Shown one piece after another: positions 6,034 through 59,923 of a DNA stretch of 64,000 bases. Position numbers and translations under genes: made by a program. Numbering within the stretch: position 1 is the stretch's first letter; every line of letters begins with the position of its first letter. Location: assembly GCA_949841045.1 (NCBI GenBank), contig CATKXS010000005.1, positions 650 to 64,649 of the forward strand, in the 5' to 3' direction. The notes below the pieces were generated by a model. The model searched no databases. It was given only the letters and a program-made list of their open reading frames with translations, and was not told the origin of the DNA. The DNA is from an uncultured Clostridia bacterium (GTDB lineage: Bacteria; Bacillota; Clostridia; Christensenellales; UBA1242).

Positions 6034-6720
6034 ATGTTTTTGACAATAAAAAAGAAGGCGATATTAGGCGTTTTATTATGTATTTTGTGCGCGGGCGGGG
6101 TGTGCGGAACATTTTTTGCGGTTAAGGCTAGCGCAACACCTAAGTTTACACATACCATTGTGATTGACGTTGGACATGGTGGAAGAGATGGTGGTGCGGT
6201 CGGCGTTTCGACGGGTATAACTGAAAGCGAACTTAATCTTACTTATGCAAAACAGCTTAAAAAACTTTGCAATGAGTTTGGTATTAAAGCGGTGCTGACG
6301 CGTGAAAATATGGACGGACTTTATGACCCGAACGCCACAAATAAAAAGAAGAGCGAAATGCAAAAACGCGAAAAGATTATCAATGGAAGCAGGGCAGAAC
6401 TTATGGTCAGTATCCACATGAATTCTTTTCCGACTTCTTCATGTTCTGGCGCGCAAATCTTTTATGCAAAAGGTAGCGAAAGCGGATTTGACCTTGCAAA
6501 AAGCGTACAACTATCCGTTTGCAAGTCTTTTGATAGTGCAAGAGATTATGTGACTGTTGGCGACTATTATGTGTTAAATTGTGCTAAAATTCCTGCAATT
6601 CTTATTGAATGTGGCTTTTTATCAAACCCAACTGAAGAAAAACTTTTGACAAGCGAAAAATATTGTGAAAGTTTTTGTTATTCGGTTTTGGCCGGTATAA
6701 TTTCATTTTTTCAGATGTAA
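6034..6720 (+). CDS. cwlD: N-acetylmuramoyl-L-alanine amidase, CwlD-like (germination-specific)
   Basis: N-terminal TM/signal segment followed by Amidase_3 motifs VIDVGHGGRDGGA, SIHMNSF and ECGFLSNPTEE. Confidence 0.75.
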   Translation: MFLTIKKKAILGVLLCILCAGGVCGTFFAVKASATPKFTHTIVIDVGHGGRDGGAVGVSTGITESELNLTYAKQLKKLCNEFGIKAVLTRENMDGLYDPNATNKKKSEMQKREKIINGSRAELMVSIHMNSFPTSSCSGAQIFYAKGSESGFDLAKSVQLSVCKSFDSARDYVTVGDYYVLNCAKIPAILIECGFLSNPTEEKLLTSEKYCESFCYSVLAGIISFFQM

Positions 6721-6781
6721 AATTTGACTAAGCTCACAATAAAATGTTATAATACTATATAAATAACGAAAGAGGTGAAAA

Positions 6782-7339
6782 ATGTTTATTGCACTTAGCG
6801 GAGTATCGGCAGTTGGTAAAAATACAGTTATAAGCGAGCTTATTAAAAGACGAGATAATATCAAAGTTTTAACTCGCTCTTCTGCGACTACAAGAGCGCC
6901 ACGAGAGAGTGACGGACAATTTGAGACCTATGTTTATCTTTCAAAAGAGGAATTTGAAAAGTGGATAAAAGAGGGCAAGTTTTATGAACATGAACTTGTT
7001 CACGACAATTATTATGGAACTATTTTGTCCGTGCTTGAAATGGCGAAAAAAGACAAAAACACTTTCTATATGAGAGATATTGATGTCAAAGGTGCGGTCA
7101 ACTTAAAAAAGTTTTTCGGCGACGAATATTTGACAATCTTCTTAGATGCGCCTGACGAGGTTATCAGAGAAAGACTGATTGGTCGCGGTGATAATGAGGC
7201 CGACATTGAAAAGAGATTGTCTAGGAGCACACTTGAAAGGTCGTACAAAAATCATTATGACCTTGTGATTGAAAATATTGATATTGAAAAAACGATTGAT
7301 ACAATACTTTCGTTTATAGATAAAAAATTCAAAAAATAA
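6782..7339 (+). CDS. gmk: guanylate kinase family protein
   Basis: P-loop LSGVSAVGKNT, TTRAPRE and the YYGT pattern of guanylate kinases. Confidence 0.7.
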   Translation: MFIALSGVSAVGKNTVISELIKRRDNIKVLTRSSATTRAPRESDGQFETYVYLSKEEFEKWIKEGKFYEHELVHDNYYGTILSVLEMAKKDKNTFYMRDIDVKGAVNLKKFFGDEYLTIFLDAPDEVIRERLIGRGDNEADIEKRLSRSTLERSYKNHYDLVIENIDIEKTIDTILSFIDKKFKK

Positions 7340-10842: not shown

Positions 10843-11955
10843 ATGGAACATTTAGCACTTTACAGAAAATATCGTCCTGCAAATTTTGACGAAGTTGTTG
10901 GACAAGAACATATTACTAAGGCGCTCAAAAATCAGATTGCAAGTGGCAATATCGGACATGCTTATTTGTTTACTGGTTCGCGTGGAATTGGCAAAACTTC
11001 TATTGCCAGAATTTTTGCACGCGCTGTCAACTGTGAGGACAATCAAAACGGCTCGCCATGTGGCAAGTGTGAAAGTTGCAAACGCCTTGAAGGGCAGAGT
11101 GACATAAACATCATTGAAATTGACGCGGCGTCAAACAACCGTGTTGACGATATAAGAGAACTGAGGGAAAAAGTTAAGTTCACACCTGTTGACGCAAAGT
11201 ATAAAGTATATATCATAGACGAAGTTCACATGCTGACGGACTCAGCATTCAACGCGCTACTTAAAACTCTTGAAGAGCCACCAAAATATGTAATCTTTAT
11301 TTTGGCGACAACCGAAGCGCACAAACTTCCAGCGACTATTCTTTCAAGATGTATCCGCTTTGATTTTAGGCTTGTTTCACAAGAGCACCTTGTTGGTTTA
11401 CTTAAAAAAGTATTTGACAGCGAAAATATTGAATATGACGATGACGCACTTAGAGCCATTGCAGTTGCAGGCGAGGGTAGTGTGAGAGATACATTGTCAA
11501 TCGCTGATTGTGTAAACGCTTACTCAACCGGAAAGATTACGCTTGAATGTGTTGAGAGAGTACTCGGAACAACTGATGAAACACTTATGATAAACTTCTT
11601 TGGATACCTTAAAGACAGAGATGTTGGGGGGCTTCTTAAACTTATCAGTGATATTGACAAGAGCGGTAAAAATTTGCCAGTACTTGTAAAAGATTTATCA
11701 AGACATTCACGAAACCTGCTTATTGCAAAGTCTTGTGCAAGTCCTAATGAGATATTAAATCTTTCAGAAGAAAGTTTTGGGAAGTTGAAAGCACAGTCTG
11801 AGGTCTTTGACGAAAAGACACTTATCAGTTACATGCAAGTTTTTGCTGGTGCTGAGAATGAACTTCGTTATACAATGTCACCAAGGCTTTTACTTGAAAC
11901 ACTTGCCTTATCAGTTATGTCAGGGCAGGCGAGTGAGGACGTAAAAAAAAACTAA
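10843..11955 (+). CDS. dnaX: DNA polymerase III subunit gamma/tau, short (gamma-length) 0-frame product
   Basis: MEHLALYRKYRP, Walker A GSRGIGKTS, zinc module CGKCESC, IIDEVHML and SRC motif LSRCIRF. AAGGAGA RBS lies before ATG 10843. Ends in an A9 run. Confidence 0.9.
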   Translation: MEHLALYRKYRPANFDEVVGQEHITKALKNQIASGNIGHAYLFTGSRGIGKTSIARIFARAVNCEDNQNGSPCGKCESCKRLEGQSDINIIEIDAASNNRVDDIRELREKVKFTPVDAKYKVYIIDEVHMLTDSAFNALLKTLEEPPKYVIFILATTEAHKLPATILSRCIRFDFRLVSQEHLVGLLKKVFDSENIEYDDDALRAIAVAGEGSVRDTLSIADCVNAYSTGKITLECVERVLGTTDETLMINFFGYLKDRDVGGLLKLISDIDKSGKNLPVLVKDLSRHSRNLLIAKSCASPNEILNLSEESFGKLKAQSEVFDEKTLISYMQVFAGAENELRYTMSPRLLLETLALSVMSGQASEDVKKN

Positions 11956-17671: not shown

Positions 17672-17924
17672 TTTACATCAAAAACAGTTTAAAACTGGAA
17701 CGTAAAATATTTAGTGTTTTGGGTAAAATTAACGATAAAAACAGTTTAAAACTGGAACGAAAAAAAATGGTGATTAAAATAAAGTTTACGATAAAAACAG
17801 TTTAAAACTGGAACGTAAAAGATTTAGTGTTTTGAATAAAAATTAACGATAAAAACAGCTTAAAGCTGGAACGAAAAAAATTGGTGATTAAAATAAAGTT
17901 TACGATAAAAACAGCTTAAAGCTG
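17672..17924 (+). repeat. tandem array of 5 hairpin units (about 57-bp period; two copies of a ~114-bp double unit)
   Basis: Palindromes at 17685-97, 17742-54 and 17798-810 are CAGTTTAAAACTG. Those at 17856-68 and 17912-24 are CAGCTTAAAGCTG. Conserved flanks are ACGATAAAAA and GGAACG(T/A)AAA. Confidence 0.9.
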
Positions 17925-17954
17925 TTGACTAAGAGGATAAGTTTAGTTTAAAAT
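17925..17954 (+). promoter_or_regulatory. Sigma-A type promoter abutting the last repeat unit
   Basis: TTGACT 17925-30, 18-nt spacer, TAAAAT 17949-54. AAGGAGGG RBS lies before ATG 17974. Confidence 0.5.
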
Positions 17955-17973: not shown

Positions 17974-18573
17974 ATGAAAGAGTTTTTGTGGGATGATGAC
18001 GACTTTGATGATGACGATGATGACGATGATGACGATGATGATGACGATGATGAAGACCCTTTTGGAAAAGATAAAGACCCAGACAAAGATGACGATGATG
18101 AAAATAATGATGATGAGGACAAAAAAGACAAAGATGACGTTGATGGCGAGGGTAAAGACGAGGATTTAGAAGTCAAAGAAAAAGATGGTGAAGGCGATAA
18201 GGATAAGGGCAAAGATAAAGACGACAAAGGGGATAAACAGAAGGGAAGAGATCCAAACGCACGCAAAATGATTGCAAGAGCAAAAGGGCTAGGATTCCCA
18301 GCTACTATCATTCCTATGTATAGATGTCCAACTTGTCACCAAAAATCTCTTTTTGCTGACAAAGTCGTGCCAACTGGCGCAAGAACAGTCAAATTTATTG
18401 TACAAGCTTGTGTAGGTGCTGTTAGAATTGACGAGGCTGTTGATATTGCAAGATTTGTTTGTTTTAATCCAAAGTGTAAATCCTTCTGGCCAAGGTCGGG
18501 AGACAAATTAAAGATTAATCCAACAAACGGCAAACTTATAGTAGAGAAGCATTGGTTCCATGTGTCGAGATAA
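17974..18573 (+). CDS. poly-Asp acidic protein with C-terminal zinc-ribbon-like domain
   Basis: About 90 N-terminal residues are dominated by D/E/K, including a D-run of more than 20. The C-terminus carries CPTCH...CFNPKC (CxxC...CxxC). Confidence 0.65.
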   Translation: MKEFLWDDDDFDDDDDDDDDDDDDDDEDPFGKDKDPDKDDDDENNDDEDKKDKDDVDGEGKDEDLEVKEKDGEGDKDKGKDKDDKGDKQKGRDPNARKMIARAKGLGFPATIIPMYRCPTCHQKSLFADKVVPTGARTVKFIVQACVGAVRIDEAVDIARFVCFNPKCKSFWPRSGDKLKINPTNGKLIVEKHWFHVSR

Positions 18574-30368: not shown

Positions 30369-31316
30369 ATGTTAAATTTCTTTCTTGTTTTTTTAGTTGG
30401 ACTTGCCTCAGCACTTATTTTTGGCAAACCAATACTGATGCTTTGTAAGAAACTTCATTTGTCTCAAACTATTCTTCATTATGTGGACAAGCATGCGGGA
30501 AAAAGTGGAACGCCGACAATGGGTGGGCTTATCTTTATTTTTGCCTCCATATTTGCTTCCGCTTTCTTTTTGAAAGGCGATGTGCTATTTTCAATATTAA
30601 TTCTACTCACTATGCTTGGCTATGGGCTACTCGGTTTTCTTGATGACTTTATTAAAATCAAATGGCACAAAAACGAGGGGCTTAAGCCTTATCAAAAAAT
30701 TATAGGGCAACTTGGACTTGCTCTCATTATTGCCGTTTTCACATACTTTAAAGTTGGAAGTGATATAGACCTTTTTGGACTAAAGCTCAATCTTAGCTTT
30801 TTTATCATTCCATTTGTTGTGATTTTTTATGTGGCTGTAACCAATTCTGTTAATTTAACAGATGGGCTTGACGGGCTTGCTTCAAGCGTGAGTTTTGTCT
30901 TTCTTTTGGCGTTTAGCGGTATTTGTATTATTCTTGGTGAATACAACTTTACTATAATTTCGCTCGCAATGGCGGGGGCTTTACTTGGATTTTTATTTTA
31001 CAACGGATTCCCAGCTAAAATCTTCATGGGCGATACTGGCTCGCTCGCGTTAGGGGGACTGCTTGCCTCTCTTTGCGTTTTTACCAAGCTTGAACTAGTA
31101 ATGCTCATCATTGGAATTATGTTTGTGCTTTCTGCTGTAAGCGACATTTTGCAAGTTGCTTATTACAAAAAAACGCACAAGCGTATATTTCTTATGGCTC
31201 CTCTTCACCACCATTTTGAGAAAAAGGGAGTTCATGAAAATAGAATTGTTATTTCTTATTCAATTGTGACCTTGATTTGTGGAATCGCTGTACTGCTTGG
31301 TTACATGGTGCTTTAA
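30369..31316 (+). CDS. mraY: phospho-N-acetylmuramoyl-pentapeptide transferase
   Basis: GTPTMGG, NLTDGLDGLA, MGDTGSLALGG and PLHHHFE. ATG 30369 follows AGAGG. Confidence 0.95.
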   Translation: MLNFFLVFLVGLASALIFGKPILMLCKKLHLSQTILHYVDKHAGKSGTPTMGGLIFIFASIFASAFFLKGDVLFSILILLTMLGYGLLGFLDDFIKIKWHKNEGLKPYQKIIGQLGLALIIAVFTYFKVGSDIDLFGLKLNLSFFIIPFVVIFYVAVTNSVNLTDGLDGLASSVSFVFLLAFSGICIILGEYNFTIISLAMAGALLGFLFYNGFPAKIFMGDTGSLALGGLLASLCVFTKLELVMLIIGIMFVLSAVSDILQVAYYKKTHKRIFLMAPLHHHFEKKGVHENRIVISYSIVTLICGIAVLLGYMVL

Positions 31317-31401
31317 GCACGCGGATTATCCGCCTACTATCATTAAGAGTATTTGAATTCTTCAATTTATTACGTTCCGTGTCTTAAGCACGCGAATTAT
31401 C
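31315..31401 (-). repeat. two long-form hairpin units (minus orientation) in the mraY-murD spacer
   Basis: GCGGATTATCCGC (31321-33). Direct repeat AAGCACGCG(G)A(A)TTATC at 31315 and 31386. TATTACGTTCC (31369-79) is the reverse complement of GGAACGTAATA. Confidence 0.6.
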
Positions 31402-31495
31402 TTTTTTTTGATTATTTCAAAAGTTAAATTAGATTATATTAATCATATTGTAACAAAAAGAGCAGTATATTACATTGTATATTTGCGAGGAAGAT

Positions 31496-34849: not shown

Positions 34850-34892
34850 GTTTATTAAATTGTCGATGGATTTTGTAAGAAATAAAATATAA

Positions 34893-34905
34893 GGGCATAA
34901 TGCCC
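34893..34905 (+). repeat. singleton palindrome GGGCATAATGCCC
   Basis: Perfect 13-nt palindrome with an A-rich 5' flank. Related copies at 37133, 41897 and 60044. Confidence 0.8.
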
Positions 34906-34938
34906 TCACATTTTGGGAAAGAAATCATATATAAAGAT

Positions 34939-37098: not shown

Positions 37099-37132
37099 GT
37101 GGCTTGATTATGCAAATAGATTAAGAAAAAGA

Positions 37133-37145
37133 AGGGCATAATGCC
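37133..37145 (+). repeat. singleton palindrome GGGCATAATGCCC
   Basis: Identical to the copy at 34893. Confidence 0.8.
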
Positions 37146-37157
37146 CTTGAAATAATT

Positions 37158-39862: not shown

Positions 39863-40020
39863 GTGCATTATGATTCTATTCACTTCGTGTGCCTTAGGCA
39901 CTTTTTACCACTGCGTTGCACCTTAGGTGCTTTCTATCTACTTCGTTGTGTATTATGCACTTTTTGTTTACTTCGTTGGGGTCTTAGTCAATTTTATCTA
40001 CTACGTTTGTACCTCGACTT
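39863..40020 (-). repeat. short-form hairpin array (about 30-bp period, 5-6 units)
   Basis: The plus strand reads (C/T)ACT(T/A/G)CGT(T) + palindrome + T-run. Palindromes are GTGCCTTAGGCAC 39889-901, GCACCTTAGGTGC 39918-30 and GTGTATTATGCAC 39948-60, with degenerate units at 39863, 39978 and 40008. Confidence 0.85.
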
Positions 40021-41896: not shown

Positions 41897-41908
41897 AGGG
41901 CATAATGC
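41897..41908 (+). repeat. degenerate GGGCATAATGCC palindrome
   Basis: aGAGGGCATAATGCCTCt, with the same A-rich 5' context as the other copies. Confidence 0.6.
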
Positions 41909-42241
41909 CTCTGAAAACATTCCAAAATAAGTCATGTACGTTGTTATTGTACACCCCTTACTTTGGAACATTTTCGAGCCTTGCCTTGCTTGTTTCTAGG
42001 CTGACTGTTGAAATTTTAGCAACCAAATGTTACACGGCTATCGTAAATTATATCAGATACTTAAAGTTTGTGACGTTCCTGTAAAAGTACAGAAAATGAA
42101 AAATGGCATAATTAATCGAAAAATCCGCAAAAATGGTGATAAAATGGGCAAAAACAATGATTTTTTCTAGTTTTGTCCTTTTTTTTGGGTTGTGAATAAA
42201 AAATATTAGCTTTGAGGAAGATATATTTACTAGGAGGAATT

Positions 42242-44331: not shown

Positions 44332-44430
44332 TGTGGCCTAGCCACCTTTTGTTCACTTCGTGTGCATTATGCACTTTCTTATTGTTTCGTTATGCATTAT
44401 GCACTTTCTTTTTACTTCGTTTGGGGTTTG
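44323..44430 (-). repeat. short-form hairpin array (about 30-bp period, 3-4 units) between feoA and feoB
   Basis: GTGGCCTAGCCAC 44333-45, GTGCATTATGCAC 44362-74, ATGCATTATGCAC 44392-404 and a degenerate terminal unit homologous to the one at 39968-39995. Flanks are ACTTCGT(T) and a T-run. Confidence 0.85.
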
Positions 44431-54988: not shown

Positions 54989-55027
54989 AAAAAGTGCCTA
55001 AGACATGCAAAAAGTGCCTAAGGCACA
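54989..55027 (+). repeat. two hairpin units, A5-GTGCCTAAGACATGC-A5-GTGCCTAAGGCAC
   Basis: Read directly. The second is a perfect palindrome identical to the one at 8009. Confidence 0.7.
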
Positions 55028-55066
55028 CAAAAAGAGCAAAAATTTATGGATTTTTGCTCTTTTTTA
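55028..55066. terminator. bidirectional Rho-independent terminator
   Basis: agagcaaaaat / atttttgctct 11-bp stem with A- and T-runs, between convergent genes. Confidence 0.8.
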
Positions 55067-56022: not shown

Positions 56023-57118
56023 ATGATTTTAGATAATGTTAAAATTAGACTTGCACAAATGAGAGATGAGATTGATTTTATAAAGGAGTGTCTTTGACAA
56101 GGGCGACCTTGAAAAGCAGTTAAAAGAGCTTCAGGCTCAGCAGTCTGAAGAAGGATTCTATCTTGACCAAGCGCGGGTTCTCGAAATTGGCAAGAAAGTC
56201 AAAAGTCTTGAAGGTAAAAAGAATTTAATCAACCTCTTAAATTGGCTCTATGATGATTGTAGGGCTTATGTTGAACTTATTGAAGAGACGCATGATACAT
56301 CGCTTGATGGGGAGGTTGAATTAAGCCTGCACAAGCTTGAAAGCGAAGTTGATAAGGCAAAAATTCAAACTCTTTTAAGAGGCAAGTATGATTCCTATGA
56401 TACGATTATGACTATCCATGCTGGCGCTGGCGGTACAGAGGCTCAGGACTGGGCTGATATGCTTTATCGAATGTACCGAATGTACTGCGAAAGTGTTGGC
56501 TACAAGCTTTCAGTTGTTGACGTGTTGAATGGTGACGAGGCGGGACTAAAATCAATTACTTTTGAGGTGAGTGGTGAAAACGCTTATGGATTTTTAAAGG
56601 CAGAAAAAGGTGTTCATAGACTTGTACGAATTTCACCTTTTGATGCAAATGCAAGAAGGCACACCTCTTTTGCAAGCGTGGAAGTTATGCCAAAGCTTGA
56701 CGAGAGTCCTAATATTGAAATCCGCTCTGAAGATTTGAAGATTGACACATATCGTTCTTCTGGCGCTGGAGGTCAGAATGTCAATAAGACCGAGAGTGCA
56801 GTAAGAATTACACATATTCCAACGGGAATAGTTGTTTCTTGTCAGGTTGAGCGTTCTCAGGTGCAAAACAAAGAAAGAGCTATGAATATGCTTTATTCTC
56901 GTCTTGCCGAAAAAGAAGAACGTGAAGAGCTTGAAAAACTTGCAAATATTCGTGGCGAAGTTAAGAAAATCGAGTGGGGAAGCCAGATTCGCAGTTATGT
57001 TTTCTGTCCTTATACGCTTGTTAAGGACCACCGTACTGGCTATGAAGACAGTAATGTCGCTTCGGTTATGGACGGAAATATTCAAGAATTCATTAACGAA
57101 TATTTAAAGAAGATTTAA
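56023..57118 (+). CDS. prfB: peptide chain release factor 2, requires programmed +1 frameshift at 56092-56098
   Basis: Frame 1 reads MILDNVKIRLAQMRDEIDFIKECL, then an in-frame TGA within CTT TGA C, preceded by AGGAG. The +1 frame continues DKGDLEKQ... into the track ORF 56408..57118, which carries SPF and GGQ (SGAGGQNVNK). Confidence 0.93.
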
Positions 57119-57134
57119 TAAAAGGTATTTTATT

Positions 57135-58214
57135 ATGAGTTATCAAAGCGATGCTTTAGAAAAATTTAATAATTTAAAAAACAAAAAAGATGTGATTGTT
57201 TTATCTATTGAAAGTTCTTGTGATGAAACGAGTATTGCTGTTGTCAAAAATGGTAGAGAAGTTTTATCAAATATCATTGCAACTCAAATAGAAATCCACA
57301 GGCGCTTTGGCGGCGTTGTGCCAGAAGTTGCATCTAGAAATCACATTCTTGCCATTTCAAATGTCTGCAAAGAGGCACTTAACGAGGCGGGAATTTCTGA
57401 GAAGGACATTGACGCTATTGCTGTAACTTATGGTGCGGGGCTAATGGGTGCGCTTCTTGTGGGGGTTAACTTTGCAAAAGGACTTGCTTATAGCTTGGGA
57501 CTTCCTCTTATTAAGGTTAGTCATGTGCATGGACATATTTCTGCAAACTATATCTCTCATGAAAAGTTAGAGCCACCTTTTATATGTCTTTTGGTTAGCG
57601 GTGGGCATACTGCTATTTTAAAAGTTGAAGGATATAACAAATTTGTAAGGCTAGGCACAACTGTAGATGACGCGGTTGGAGAAGCCTTTGATAAAGTTGC
57701 AAGAGTTCTTAGCCTTCCTTATCCAGGAGGACCTGAAATTGACAAACTTGCAAAAGAAGGAAAAAATGTTTATCATTTCACTGTTTCAAATAGTTTAAAA
57801 AACACCTATGATTTTTCTTTCAGTGGGATTAAGACAGAGGTGGTAAACCTCGTTCACAATGCTACGCAAAAGGGCGAAACACTGAATTTTGCAGATATTG
57901 CCTCATCTTTTCAGGAATGTGTTACTGATGAACTTGCTTTAAAAGCGGTTAAGGCTTGTAAAAACTATGACTTGAAAAAATTGGTTGTTGCGGGTGGCGT
58001 TGGTGCAAATTCAAGATTGAAAGAAAAATTAGGTGCTCTTTGTGAGGAAAACAATATTAAATTTTATAGTCCATCTTTGAAGTATTGCACTGATAATGGT
58101 GCAATGATAGGTTCAATGGCTTATTATATGATTAAGGACGGAATTGGACTTGCTGATTTAAGTTTAACAGCAAAACCAAATATTGATTTGCAACAGCCTA
58201 ACGTCGTGCGATAA
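57135..58214 (+). CDS. tsaD: tRNA N6-adenosine threonylcarbamoyltransferase TsaD
   Basis: LSIESSCDETS, HVHGHI, VSGGHT and VAGGVGAN motifs. Confidence 0.9.
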   Translation: MSYQSDALEKFNNLKNKKDVIVLSIESSCDETSIAVVKNGREVLSNIIATQIEIHRRFGGVVPEVASRNHILAISNVCKEALNEAGISEKDIDAIAVTYGAGLMGALLVGVNFAKGLAYSLGLPLIKVSHVHGHISANYISHEKLEPPFICLLVSGGHTAILKVEGYNKFVRLGTTVDDAVGEAFDKVARVLSLPYPGGPEIDKLAKEGKNVYHFTVSNSLKNTYDFSFSGIKTEVVNLVHNATQKGETLNFADIASSFQECVTDELALKAVKACKNYDLKKLVVAGGVGANSRLKEKLGALCEENNIKFYSPSLKYCTDNGAMIGSMAYYMIKDGIGLADLSLTAKPNIDLQQPNVVR

Positions 58215-58321
58215 TTGTAAGGAGCGCTTAATATTCTTATTGTTTCCTTCCTACAAAAACCGAATTATATAGGTTGAGTTTAAAGGAATGGGGAATTTTA
58301 GATATTAAATTATAAAGGTAA

Positions 58322-58740
58322 GTGGCTAAGCCACACGACAATCGCGCAGCGTAAGGCTGGGGAACGTAAAAATATAAAAATTAAAAATGGCTTACGAAAG
58401 TCGCGCAGCGTAAGGCTGTGGGAACGTAAAAATATAAAAATTTAAAAATGACTTACGAAAGTCGCGCAGCGTAAGGCTGTGGGAACGTAATATTAACAAA
58501 ACTTTAAATACAATAGACGATAAACGTCGAACATTTGGTTCGGCGGGAACGAAATAAATTTAAAAATCAAATATAACTAACGATAATGATGCAAACTAAG
58601 TTTGCTGGAACATAATAAAACCAAAACTTTAGATATGTCTTACGATAATCGCGCAGCGTAAGGCTGCTGGAACGTAATAATATAAAAATTTAAATACTAT
58701 AGACGATATTCGTGCAACATTTGTTTGCTGGGGAGGAAAT
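58322..58740 (+). repeat. tandem array of 8 hairpin units (58-63 bp period) ending on the U32 gene RBS
   Basis: ACGA boxes at 58336, 58394, 58454, 58517, 58580, 58642 and 58703. Stems vary (CAGCgTAAgGCTG x4, CGAACaTTTgGTTCG, GCAAACTAAGTTTGC, GCAAcATTTGtTTGC, GTGGCTAAGCCAC). 3' boxes are GGAAC(G/A)(T/A)AA. Confidence 0.9.
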
Positions 58741-58741
58741 T

Positions 58742-59923
58742 ATGGAATTACTTGCACCTGCTGGTAATTTTGAAAAACTTGTTACCGCTGTCCACTTCGG
58801 GGCAGATGCGGTTTATTTTTCAGGCAAAACTCTAGGACTTCGCGCCTTTGCTGGCAATTTCAGCAATGACGAAATTAAGTCCGCTATGGAATTTTTGCAT
58901 AGCCACGCCAAAAAAGGTTATATCACTCTCAATATCGTTGCAAAAGATGTTGACTTTGTTGGTCTAGACGATTATCTTAAAGTGCTTGAAGAGGCAAAGG
59001 TGGACGGCGTTATTGTTTCAGACGTGGGTCTTATTTACTATATCCGTAAGAACTTTCCGTCAATTGATGTTCATGTGTCAACTCAGGCAAACGTAAACAA
59101 CTCTCAGTCAGCAAAATTCTATGCTGATATGGGAGTTACTAGAATTGTGCTTGCAAGAGAACTTAATCTTGAAGATATTAAAAAAATTCATGACAATGTT
59201 AAAAATGTTGAAATTGAAACCTTTGTGCATGGTGCAATGTGTATTTCCTATTCTGGAAGATGCCTGCTGTCAAACTATTTGACTGGCAGAGATAGCAATA
59301 GGGGTGCTTGCGTTCAAGCTTGTAGGTGGAAATATTATATCCGCGAAGAAAACCGCGAAGATGAATATCCTATTGAAGAGGATGAACGCGGAACATATAT
59401 TTTAAACTCAAAAGATATGTGCCTTATTGATTATGTTGACAAATTGAGAGATGCAGGAATTGCAAGCTTGAAAATTGAAGGTCGAATGAAATCAGATTAT
59501 TATGTTGCCAGCGTTGTCAATGCGTACAGACGAGCACTTGACGGCTTTGACGATTTTAATCTTCTTCATGACGAACTTGAAAAAACCAGTCACAGACGTT
59601 ATACAACAGGTTTTTACTTTAATTCTGACGACAAAGAATATTTGAACGACAGCATGCCTGTTCAAACCTATGAATTTATGGCTAAGGCTGTGGAAGATGC
59701 AAAAGAGGGCAGGGTTAAAGTTGAAATGAGAAACAAGTTTAGACTTGGTGATGAACTTGAGGTGCTATCGCCTGATGATAATTTCTTAAAGAAGATTAAA
59801 ATTGAGAGCATTATAAACTCAATAGGCGAAAATGTAGAAGAAGCGAAAAGGGTGCAAGAAATAGTGGAAATTAACTGTCCATTTGCTCTTAAAAAAGGTG
59901 ATATTTTAAGACGTGAATCTTAA
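58742..59923 (+). CDS. peptidase U32 family protein
   Basis: MELLAPAGN start typical of U32, E..VHGAMCISYSGRC motif, and a C-terminal beta-barrel domain. ATG 58742 follows GGGGAGG. Confidence 0.85.
   Translation: MELLAPAGNFEKLVTAVHFGADAVYFSGKTLGLRAFAGNFSNDEIKSAMEFLHSHAKKGYITLNIVAKDVDFVGLDDYLKVLEEAKVDGVIVSDVGLIYYIRKNFPSIDVHVSTQANVNNSQSAKFYADMGVTRIVLARELNLEDIKKIHDNVKNVEIETFVHGAMCISYSGRCLLSNYLTGRDSNRGACVQACRWKYYIREENREDEYPIEEDERGTYILNSKDMCLIDYVDKLRDAGIASLKIEGRMKSDYYVASVVNAYRRALDGFDDFNLLHDELEKTSHRRYTTGFYFNSDDKEYLNDSMPVQTYEFMAKAVEDAKEGRVKVEMRNKFRLGDELEVLSPDDNFLKKIKIESIINSIGENVEEAKRVQEIVEINCPFALKKGDILRRES

Follow-up and report, generated by a model that had tools for sequence, protein, structure and literature searches.

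A tandem hairpin array between tsaD and a U32 peptidase gene as a probable member of a lineage-restricted family of interspersed palindromic repeats in an uncultured Clostridia bacterium

The spacer between tsaD and a U32 peptidase gene in a 64-kb stretch of DNA from an uncultured, spore-forming Clostridia bacterium (the whole stretch is called the window here) contains a string of regularly spaced small hairpins. An array of this kind directly in front of a gene raises the question whether it serves that gene or has its origin elsewhere. An earlier note, made from the window sequence, had described eight phased units that could be placed in no known class of RNA or repeat, and had offered two hypotheses: (a) a long, structured 5' leader of the U32 gene or an RNA that titrates a protein, or (b) hairpins like repetitive extragenic palindromes (REPs) that are substrates of a Y1 enzyme encoded elsewhere. 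The units were compared with each other, with the rest of the window and with related genomes; 64 kb were covered of the window genome and about 11 kb of a second species. The array probably represents a single locus within a family of small interspersed palindromic repeats that is restricted to its lineage and resembles the REP/bacterial interspersed mosaic element (BIME) and BOX/SPRITE families. It does not act on the U32 gene as a dedicated regulator with a specific ligand or protein partner.

The spacer measures 527 bp, from the tsaD stop at 58214 to the U32 start codon at 58742, in agreement with the length given in the earlier note. Its array, designated array B, consists of seven head-to-tail units with conserved boxes (B1 to B7; 59 to 63 bp each) and reaches to 1 nt before the U32 Shine-Dalgarno sequence (SD). 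Tandem Repeats Finder (TRF) reported a 61-nt period with 5.9 copies at 58335-58696, and the ACGA boxes of the seven units start at 58335, 58394, 58455, 58517, 58580, 58642 and 58703. In each unit an (N)NACGAWA box is followed by a variable hairpin, a (T)GGAACGWAA box and an A/T-rich spacer of about 25 nt. The loop centre lies exactly 18 nt past the A of ACGA, and the second box about 9 nt past the loop centre. The stem sequences quoted in the earlier note were correct and the periodic array was confirmed, but only seven of the eight units carry boxes. The first hairpin, B0, lacks both boxes, and its loop centre is only 25 nt ahead of the next one. Judging from its sequence, B0 belongs to a subfamily of short units described below and is foreign to the 61-bp units.

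The last unit, B7, is a distinct terminal type with the consensus ACGATAnnCGTGCAACATTTGkTTGCT. The earlier note held that the SD occupies the position of its GGAACG box. This was not upheld, since the box is missing in all four places where the type occurs. As the sequence GGAGGAAATTATGG at the U32 SD is kept in relatives, the SD region is host sequence and not part of the array.

The pairing of the stems was tested with 23-mers centred on the loops, which gave a gapless alignment of 11 distinct hairpins with a six-pair stem. In the long units 83.3% of the cells were paired, compared with 65.6% in column shuffles, and the covariation score was 0.518, compared with 0.18; neither observed value was reached by any of 500 shuffles. 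Two-sided changes were present at five of the six pairs. When the 3' partner was slid by 1 to 3 columns as a control, only 23 to 51% of the cells were paired. The joint change of both arms with retention of pairing, claimed in the earlier note, is thereby confirmed. Given the small sample and the relatedness of the units through duplication, the evidence is good but not overwhelming. In the short-unit subfamily 95% of the cells were paired, with double changes at four of five pairs and a score that none of 500 shuffles reached; this set had been picked partly for being hairpins. The stems are point-mutation variants of each other; ring 4, for example, shows G-C changed to A-T, ring 6 shows C-G changed to A-T or G-C, and ring 7 shows G-C changed to C-G. 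The inverted repeats therefore do vary between units while remaining paired, as had been noted, but they are not replaced by unrelated sequences. An outer TTACG/CGTAA helix around each unit was also considered and rejected; no more than 4 of 14 units can form it, and its changes are not compensatory.

Over unit and spacer, B1 shares 92% identity with B2, and other pairs of units share 59 to 85%. In a second array (array A) a double unit of 114 nt is repeated at 92 to 94% identity. Because neighbouring units share their spacers in this way, tandem duplication must have taken part in the history of the arrays. Tandem duplication clearly built the arrays, on top of a dispersal between loci, and the subsequent divergence of the units preserves the pairing of the stems. 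The view that the array is 'not simple duplication' therefore holds for the dispersal and fails for the local growth of the arrays. That compensatory change keeps the hairpin suggests that it matters in a single-stranded state. It would be used either in read-through transcripts, as RNA, or in single-stranded DNA (ssDNA) when the repeats are mobilised or replicated.

A covariance model was built from 11 units, as the earlier note had proposed, and scanned over the window. It recovered 11 units with E<=1.4e-3, all in arrays A and B, and gave weaker matches on the reverse strand at 42014-42048 and 31369-31407. The pattern ACGAWA-N(6-34)-GGAAC occurred eight times in the window compared with 1.0 expected, and all eight occurrences were on the plus strand in two arrays. 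About seven spacers of the 64 kb contained at least 15 units of the long form and at least 12 of the short form (Table 1). All of them are intergenic, the cores of the long units measure 35 to 41 bp, and the number of units per locus is 1, 2, 5 or 7. The loci adjoin unrelated genes, and the units lie in both orientations relative to the flanking genes.

Array A is situated between a hypothetical gene and a gene for an acidic protein, and a promoter-like TTGACT-18-TAAAAT, an SD and an ATG at 17974 follow it. Its stems are CAGTT-TAA-AACTG (three times) and CAGCT-TAA-AGCTG (twice), another compensatory pair. The degenerate copy in the sigE-sigG spacer reads CTGTA-CTTT-TACAG with GGAACGTCA, a spacer, and TTTACGATAG with a B7-type hairpin. 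Next to the solo unit in the mraY-murD spacer there are two further TAA-loop hairpins (31308-31333). The short units (family 2) consist of (C/T)ACTTCGT(T), a 5-bp stem with the loop TTA, and a T-run. Reverse-complemented, they read A-run, stem, TAA, stem and (A)ACGAAGT, which is the hairpin-plus-AACGWA layout of the long units. Both forms thus have in common the CGT tag, the TAA/TTA loop and the arrangement of the A/T-run. Perfect TAA/TTA-triloop hairpins with a stem of at least 5 bp and at least two G-C pairs numbered 22 in the window, compared with 1.9 +/- 1.25 in 100 dinucleotide shuffles and with 5 in 73.7 kb of relatives. A B7-type unit caps array B, the dimer at 42018 and a dimer in another species (see below); no conserved 5' module was recognised.

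Table 1. Positions of the hairpin units and of the adjoining U32 translation start in the window
Feature	Position	Strand	Structure	Support or remark
B0	58322..58334	+	unboxed hairpin GTGGC-TAA-GCCAC, then ACGA	short-unit (family 2) member; minus strand flagged terminator-like
B1	58332..58370	+	CACGACA box, CAGCg-TAA-gGCTG hairpin, GGAACGTAA box	48.6 bits
B2	58390..58430	+	TTACGAAAG box, CGCAGCg-TAA-gGCTGTG hairpin (one G.U pair), GGAACGTAA box	54.2 bits
B3	58451..58491	+	core identical to B2	55.2 bits
B4	58513..58555	+	AGACGATAA box, 8-bp stem CGTCGAAC-ATTTG-GTTCGGCG, GGAACGAAA box	39.4 bits
B5	58576..58616	+	TAACGATAA box, GCAAAC-TAA-GTTTGC hairpin, GGAACATAA box	48.7 bits
B6	58638..58678	+	TTACGATAA box, GCAGCg-TAA-gGCTGC hairpin, GGAACGTAA box	58.3 bits
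B7, terminal unit type	58700..58729	+	AGACGATAT box and TCGTGCAACATTTGTTTGCTGG, without GGAACG box	16 bits; hairpin ends at 58728, GCTGG at 58729, SD directly after
U32 peptidase SD and ATG	58730..58744 (SD 58730-58736)	+	GGGGAGG and ATG	host sequence that array B abuts
Array A	17672..17927	+	five units, 56-58 nt period (114-nt double unit, 92%)	TRF, pattern, covariance model
Degenerate two-unit copy, sigE-sigG spacer	42018..42092	-		covariance model; also in same-species strain
Solo degenerate unit, mraY-murD spacer	31369..31407	-	GATAATTCGC, GTGCT-TAA-GACAC, GGAACGTAA	covariance model
Family-2 array, ftsZ-spoIIGA spacer	39874..40010	+	five units of 29-30 nt	TTA form = reverse orientation of TAA form
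Family-2 array, feoA-feoB spacer	44333..44425	+	four units	29-30 nt period
Family-2 pair between convergent genes	54989..55034	+	AAAAAGTGCCTAAGrCAyrC, TAA orientation	

The closest U32 proteins in the databases were 81 to 84% identical, and their loci were syntenic with the window, except in L004, in which an NMN-transporter gene is located upstream of U32. The U32-upstream spacers of these relatives (L001-L004, L141 and L142; 110 to 300 bp, A/T-rich) contained no units. The array is thus absent from the spacer upstream of U32 in these relatives, an outcome that the earlier note had linked to neutral, recent tandem duplication. A contig from another sample (L150, a Logan contig) was 98.65% identical to the window over 3.6 kb and therefore comes from the same species. 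It retains the ftsZ-spoIIGA array and the sigE-sigG dimer with unchanged numbers of units, and all three indels in its alignment with the window fall inside repeat units.

Genome contigs were scanned with the pattern ACGATAA-N-GGAACGWAA-N-ACGAWA, and among the matches listed only L022, from the mouse-gut metagenome-assembled genome (MAG) MGBC121240, was real; the others were due to chance. L022 contains two units almost identical to B6-B7, ACGATAATCGCCAAGCGTAAGGCTTGTGGAACG ... ACGATAGTCGTGCAACATTTGGTTGCTGG, and these border directly on a stretch of 20 nt that duplicates the 3' end of a tRNA-Leu(CAA). The SpoIIGA encoded on L151, from the same assembly, is only 63% identical to that of the window; L022 therefore comes from a different species, and the possibility that it was part of the window genome was ruled out. 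The ftsZ-to-feoB region of MGBC121240 (L151), which is syntenic with the window, contained no units. A third species (L143-146), whose LexA is 80% identical to that of L022, has a B7-type hairpin matching at 22 of 22 nt. It immediately follows the tRNA-Leu CCA end and lies on the strand of the tRNA, in the opposite orientation. B7 of the window matches the copies in these two other species at 21 of 22 nt, and the B7 type is far better conserved than its surrounding spacer. The family is accordingly patchy, non-orthologous in position and expanded in the species of the window.

These distributions bear on the first hypothesis of the earlier note, according to which array B is a dedicated structured 5' leader or a CsrA-like titrating RNA for U32. 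Array B has the same orientation as tsaD and U32 and reaches the SD, every unit contains GGA, and the plus strand of array B folds somewhat better than shuffled sequences (z = -2.6; the z-scores of whole arrays were modest on both strands, -1.6 to -2.6). However, the array is conserved upstream of U32 in no relative examined, and the same units recur at unrelated genes, either in front of them or between them, and in both orientations. In RNA form the loops of array B would read UAA, GUAAG or AUUUG, whereas GGA is located at the 3' foot of the stem, partly paired and outside the loop, and the window contains no csrA. Moreover, the promoter-like site lies 3' of array A, so that array A may fall outside the downstream mRNA. 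A dedicated U32 leader or titrating RNA is therefore highly improbable, and hypothesis (a) is not supported.

An effect on transcription ends was considered as well. The units might have been co-opted as tandem weak terminators or attenuators or as 3'-end stabilisers like SPRITE, in which case arrays A and B would stop antisense and pass sense transcription. A hairpin followed by a T-run occurs in sense orientation to the upstream gene at 31369, 39874, 42018 and 44333 and also for the minus-strand gene beside 54989; the hairpin directly 3' of the tRNA-Leu CCA end in L143-146 is likewise in a suitable place. A terminator scan flagged only B0 and two units of array A, all of them on the minus strand and with stems of 5 to 7 bp. 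Array B does not have the G+C-rich stem of at least about 7 to 10 bp with a U-tract that is typical of an intrinsic terminator: no T-run follows any stem on the plus strand, and none adjoins the stems on either strand. The family-2 units, with 5-bp stems, resemble a terminator weakly. Stems of 5 bp with triloops are weak, one array lies in the spacer of the normally co-transcribed feoA-feoB pair, the ftsZ array comes after a canonical terminator, and relatives do without the units. Termination or attenuation as the role of the family is for these reasons distinctly unlikely.

Searches in databases gave no other assignment. Rfam returned nothing at the gathering threshold and only noise at E<=10, in agreement with the earlier note, which could place the units in no known class. 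A blastn comparison of the array with plasmids and phages gave no match. A scan of metagenome contigs with the B6-type core gave three chance matches in high-GC DNA, and four scans of viral contigs gave nothing or lone matches to a loose pattern only. Several identities were dropped after inspection by eye. A kink-turn internal loop fitted poorly, as did Spo0A, cre, Fur and PurR boxes and attC or dif sites. Sigma-54 or extracytoplasmic function (ECF; GGAAC...CGT) promoters would have the wrong spacing, a LexA/Cheo box in B4 has a spacer of 5 nt instead of 4, and a coding repeat was discarded as there are stops in all frames.

The following sequence of events would account for these observations. 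In the orientation used in the earlier note, the basic module is an A-rich stretch, a stem of 5 to 8 bp, a TAA (or GTAAG/ATTTG) loop and a (GG)AACGWA tag; the long form is this module with an additional ACGAWA tag at a fixed distance of 18 nt 5' of the loop centre and an A/T spacer of about 25 nt. Copies may have entered many intergenic spacers in either orientation by some route of mobilisation, followed by local growth through tandem duplication (slippage or unequal exchange), which would yield arrays that run head-to-tail and end in a terminal unit of a distinct type. Single-stranded, the hairpin would act either as ssDNA while the element is mobilised or replicated, or as RNA once transcription has read through it. 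Array B itself most likely travels in the tsaD-U32 intercistronic or leader RNA as a passenger, passive or mildly modulatory. Its string of stem-loops could affect decay or processing of the mRNA, and units in the opposite orientation could block antisense transcription. As a separate observation, two sigma-70-like promoter matches (9/12, by consensus only) are present at 58559-58587 in the B4-B5 spacer and at 58187-58215 at the 3' end of tsaD. If they were real, the U32 leader would be about 150 nt (three units) or about 520 nt (all units) long.

Several points weigh against an interspersed repeat family. No mobilising enzyme, target-site duplication or pair of empty and filled sites was found in the examined DNA, and the argument for mobility is drawn entirely from the non-orthologous distribution of the units. 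The copies were counted over the 64 kb of this genome and about 11 kb of the second species. Pairs of the G.U type numbered about 5 to 6 and those of the A.C type 3, counts that are small and do not single out a strand of action. The conservation of the terminal hairpin at 21 to 22 of 22 nt across three species is higher than would be predicted for junk, and a function is possible. Finally, the regular spacing of the ACGWWA boxes in array B could mean phased protein binding on DNA.

The last point was weighed as an explanation in its own right, in which a nucleoid-associated, partition-type or regulatory protein reads the ACGWWA boxes and the hairpins are incidental. The thirteen boxes of array B are 29 to 32 bp apart, about three helical turns, with A/T-rich DNA between them, but the spacing in array A alternates between 25 and 31 to 33 bp. 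Between the boxes it is pairing and not sequence that is conserved, which a reader of duplex DNA would not select, and no candidate regulator is adjacent. A phased binding array is thus quite improbable. A more speculative proposal is that the units are parts of an undescribed hairpin-recognising system of Clostridia. This could be an AACGWA-tagged ssDNA element amplified head-to-tail by a non-RAYT enzyme (RAYT, REP-associated tyrosine transposase), or a multi-hairpin RNA scaffold for a hairpin- and tag-specific protein, and the B7-type hairpin at the tRNA 3' end would be a recognition or priming site. Such a system was regarded as unlikely.

The window has a G+C content of 35.5% and represents a core chromosomal segment. 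Its genes, nearly all of which are on the plus strand, include ppdK, spoIIE, dnaX, recR, argS, the mur/dcw cluster, ftsA/ftsZ, spoIIGA-sigE-sigG, nrdR, feoAB, fakA, prfB, tsaD, the U32 peptidase gene, sepF, lspA and rluD. A Pfam scan covered 65 open reading frames (ORFs) of the window and gave nothing but housekeeping genes. The gene 3' of array A (17974-18573) encodes an extremely acidic, Asp-rich protein of 199 amino acids with GAT/GAC repeats and without a Pfam match. The hairpin A(A/G)GGGCA-TAA-TGCCC(T)T is present in three copies (34892-34906, 37132-37148 and 41897-41909), each shortly 3' of a plus-strand gene and with the A-rich side upstream; these copies may represent a further subfamily of hairpin repeats. 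The gene prfB (RF2; 56023-57118) has an ordinary, classical programmed +1 frameshift: an ORF of 24 codons ends with CTT TGA C (positions 56092-56098), beyond which the RF-1/PCRF domains are encoded in the +1 frame.

Some further observations were made on the other genomes. At the tRNA-Leu(CAA) locus 3' of the lexA operon (L022 2013-2215; L147 ~10990-11200) the 3' end of the tRNA is partly duplicated in tandem, once or twice (TGGTGCCGATGGTGGGAGCC), and every duplicate has a trailer hairpin of its own. From their sequence, these duplicates look like the remains of repeated integration or excision at the tRNA. Near lexA and tRNA-Leu a lone large-terminase-like gene (Terminase_6N) occupies a conserved chromosomal position in L143-L149 (e.g. 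L143 12609-14042), which represent several related species, and this gene may be a domesticated or remnant phage gene. The chance matches of the genome scan included mixed-hexamer arrays (ACGAAA / ACGATA / ACGGGA)n in rumen Prevotella/Bacteroidales MAGs, at L030 ~840-960 and 6450-6980 (minus), L095 496-620, L104 5459-5600 and L018 6448-6540.

On the favoured interpretation, an interspersed repeat family, an uncultured lineage of spore-forming gut Clostridia would have its own prolific family of tagged hairpin repeats, which occupies about one-ninth of the intergenic spacers of a core chromosomal region. Such families are of use as strain-typing markers and can break assemblies. As natural experiments they show how hairpins are maintained, and in the recently duplicated arrays of this window the compensatory changes are unusually readable. 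The case further teaches caution, as a striking structured array upstream of one gene need not be a dedicated regulator.

The array was finally compared with known systems. CRISPR arrays likewise have regular, partly palindromic repeats of about 35 nt with spacers of about 25 nt. However, the A/T-rich 'spacers' in the window are duplicates of each other and the repeats differ in their stems. CRISPR was rejected, as the only Rfam match of this kind was CRISPR-DR33 with E=4 and there was no cas domain among the window proteins. As to riboswitches and other leaders, no Rfam family was matched and the relatives have no units in front of U32. The CsrB/RsmZ sponges are similar in having many short repeated hairpins with nearby GGA in a region of the size of a transcript. 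In the sponges GGA is presented in hairpin loops or single-stranded linkers of a discrete, conserved small RNA gene, whereas here it lies outside the loops. Long A-rich linkers separate the hairpins at a period of about 60 nt, the same units are found scattered in either orientation, and the locus is not conserved in relatives.

Stem-loop repeat families are established in Firmicutes, including tandem modules (boxB) and SPRITE (PMC3049150), and also in clostridia (PMC2267715). The pneumococcal BOX element has the structure boxA-boxB(n)-boxC with a 45-nt boxB, forms predicted stem-loops and is found near unrelated genes (PMC3049150). The units of the window may be comparable as modular intergenic repeats of a Firmicute, with a tandem internal module of variable number and differing terminal modules. 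By description they differ from BOX in that they measure 56 to 63 bp including the spacer and have only the 3'-terminal B7 module as a recognisable end; no terminal inverted repeat or relationship to an insertion sequence was seen. SPRITE is a pneumococcal, terminator-like element with a duplex of 18 bp that occurs in single copies (PMC3049150). The family-2 arrays and the units in reverse orientation resemble it as dispersed hairpins with a T-rich tract, enriched just 3' of genes, whereas they have 5-bp stems and form tandem arrays in both orientations.

The likeness to REP/BIME and REPIN-RAYT systems is considerable, and hypothesis (b) of the earlier note was the nearer analogy of the two. 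REPs are extragenic, imperfect palindromes of 20 to 40 bp in many copies, a description that fits the units of the window. As in REPs, a conserved unpaired tag stands beside the stem, variants of stem, loop and tail occur within the family, and the units are numerous in one lineage, absent from relatives and clustered in spacers, often at the 3' ends of genes. In a strict REP/REPIN system the units would be ssDNA substrates of a Y1 enzyme (RAYT or IS200/IS605 TnpA-like) or of another HUH enzyme elsewhere in the genome, with AACGWA/TWCGTT corresponding to the GTAG tag. The position of the tag next to a hairpin of variable stem with preserved pairing agrees with this, as does the fixed distance of 18 nt from ACGAWA to the loop centre in all B/M units. 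REP superfamilies are defined by an unpaired tag (GTAG or CGTC) and a palindrome, and no transposase is known for the CGTC-tagged REPs (PMC3733652). On the other hand, the 64-kb window contains no transposase, RAYT or Y1/HUH gene, the tags are ACGAWA and (GG)AACGWA (TWCGTT on the other strand) instead of GTAG or CGTC, and the stems are of 5 to 8 bp with a TAA triloop. REPs form mainly inverted head-to-head or tail-to-tail dimers and head-to-tail arrangements are rare (PMC3733652), but all arrays in the window are strictly head-to-tail with A/T spacers. Moreover, the host belongs to the Clostridia, and a 2013 survey of tagged REP families reported none from Firmicutes and did not mention the phylum (PMC3733652). 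A strict REP system is thus rather unlikely. If a cognate enzyme or binding protein exists, the family would represent a Firmicutes REP-like system with head-to-tail amplification. In summary of this comparison, the repeat family is new, stem-loop families of this kind are already well documented, and it stands out by its strictly head-to-tail arrays, by two tags whose distance from the loop is fixed, by the TAA triloop and by a terminal hairpin conserved across species.

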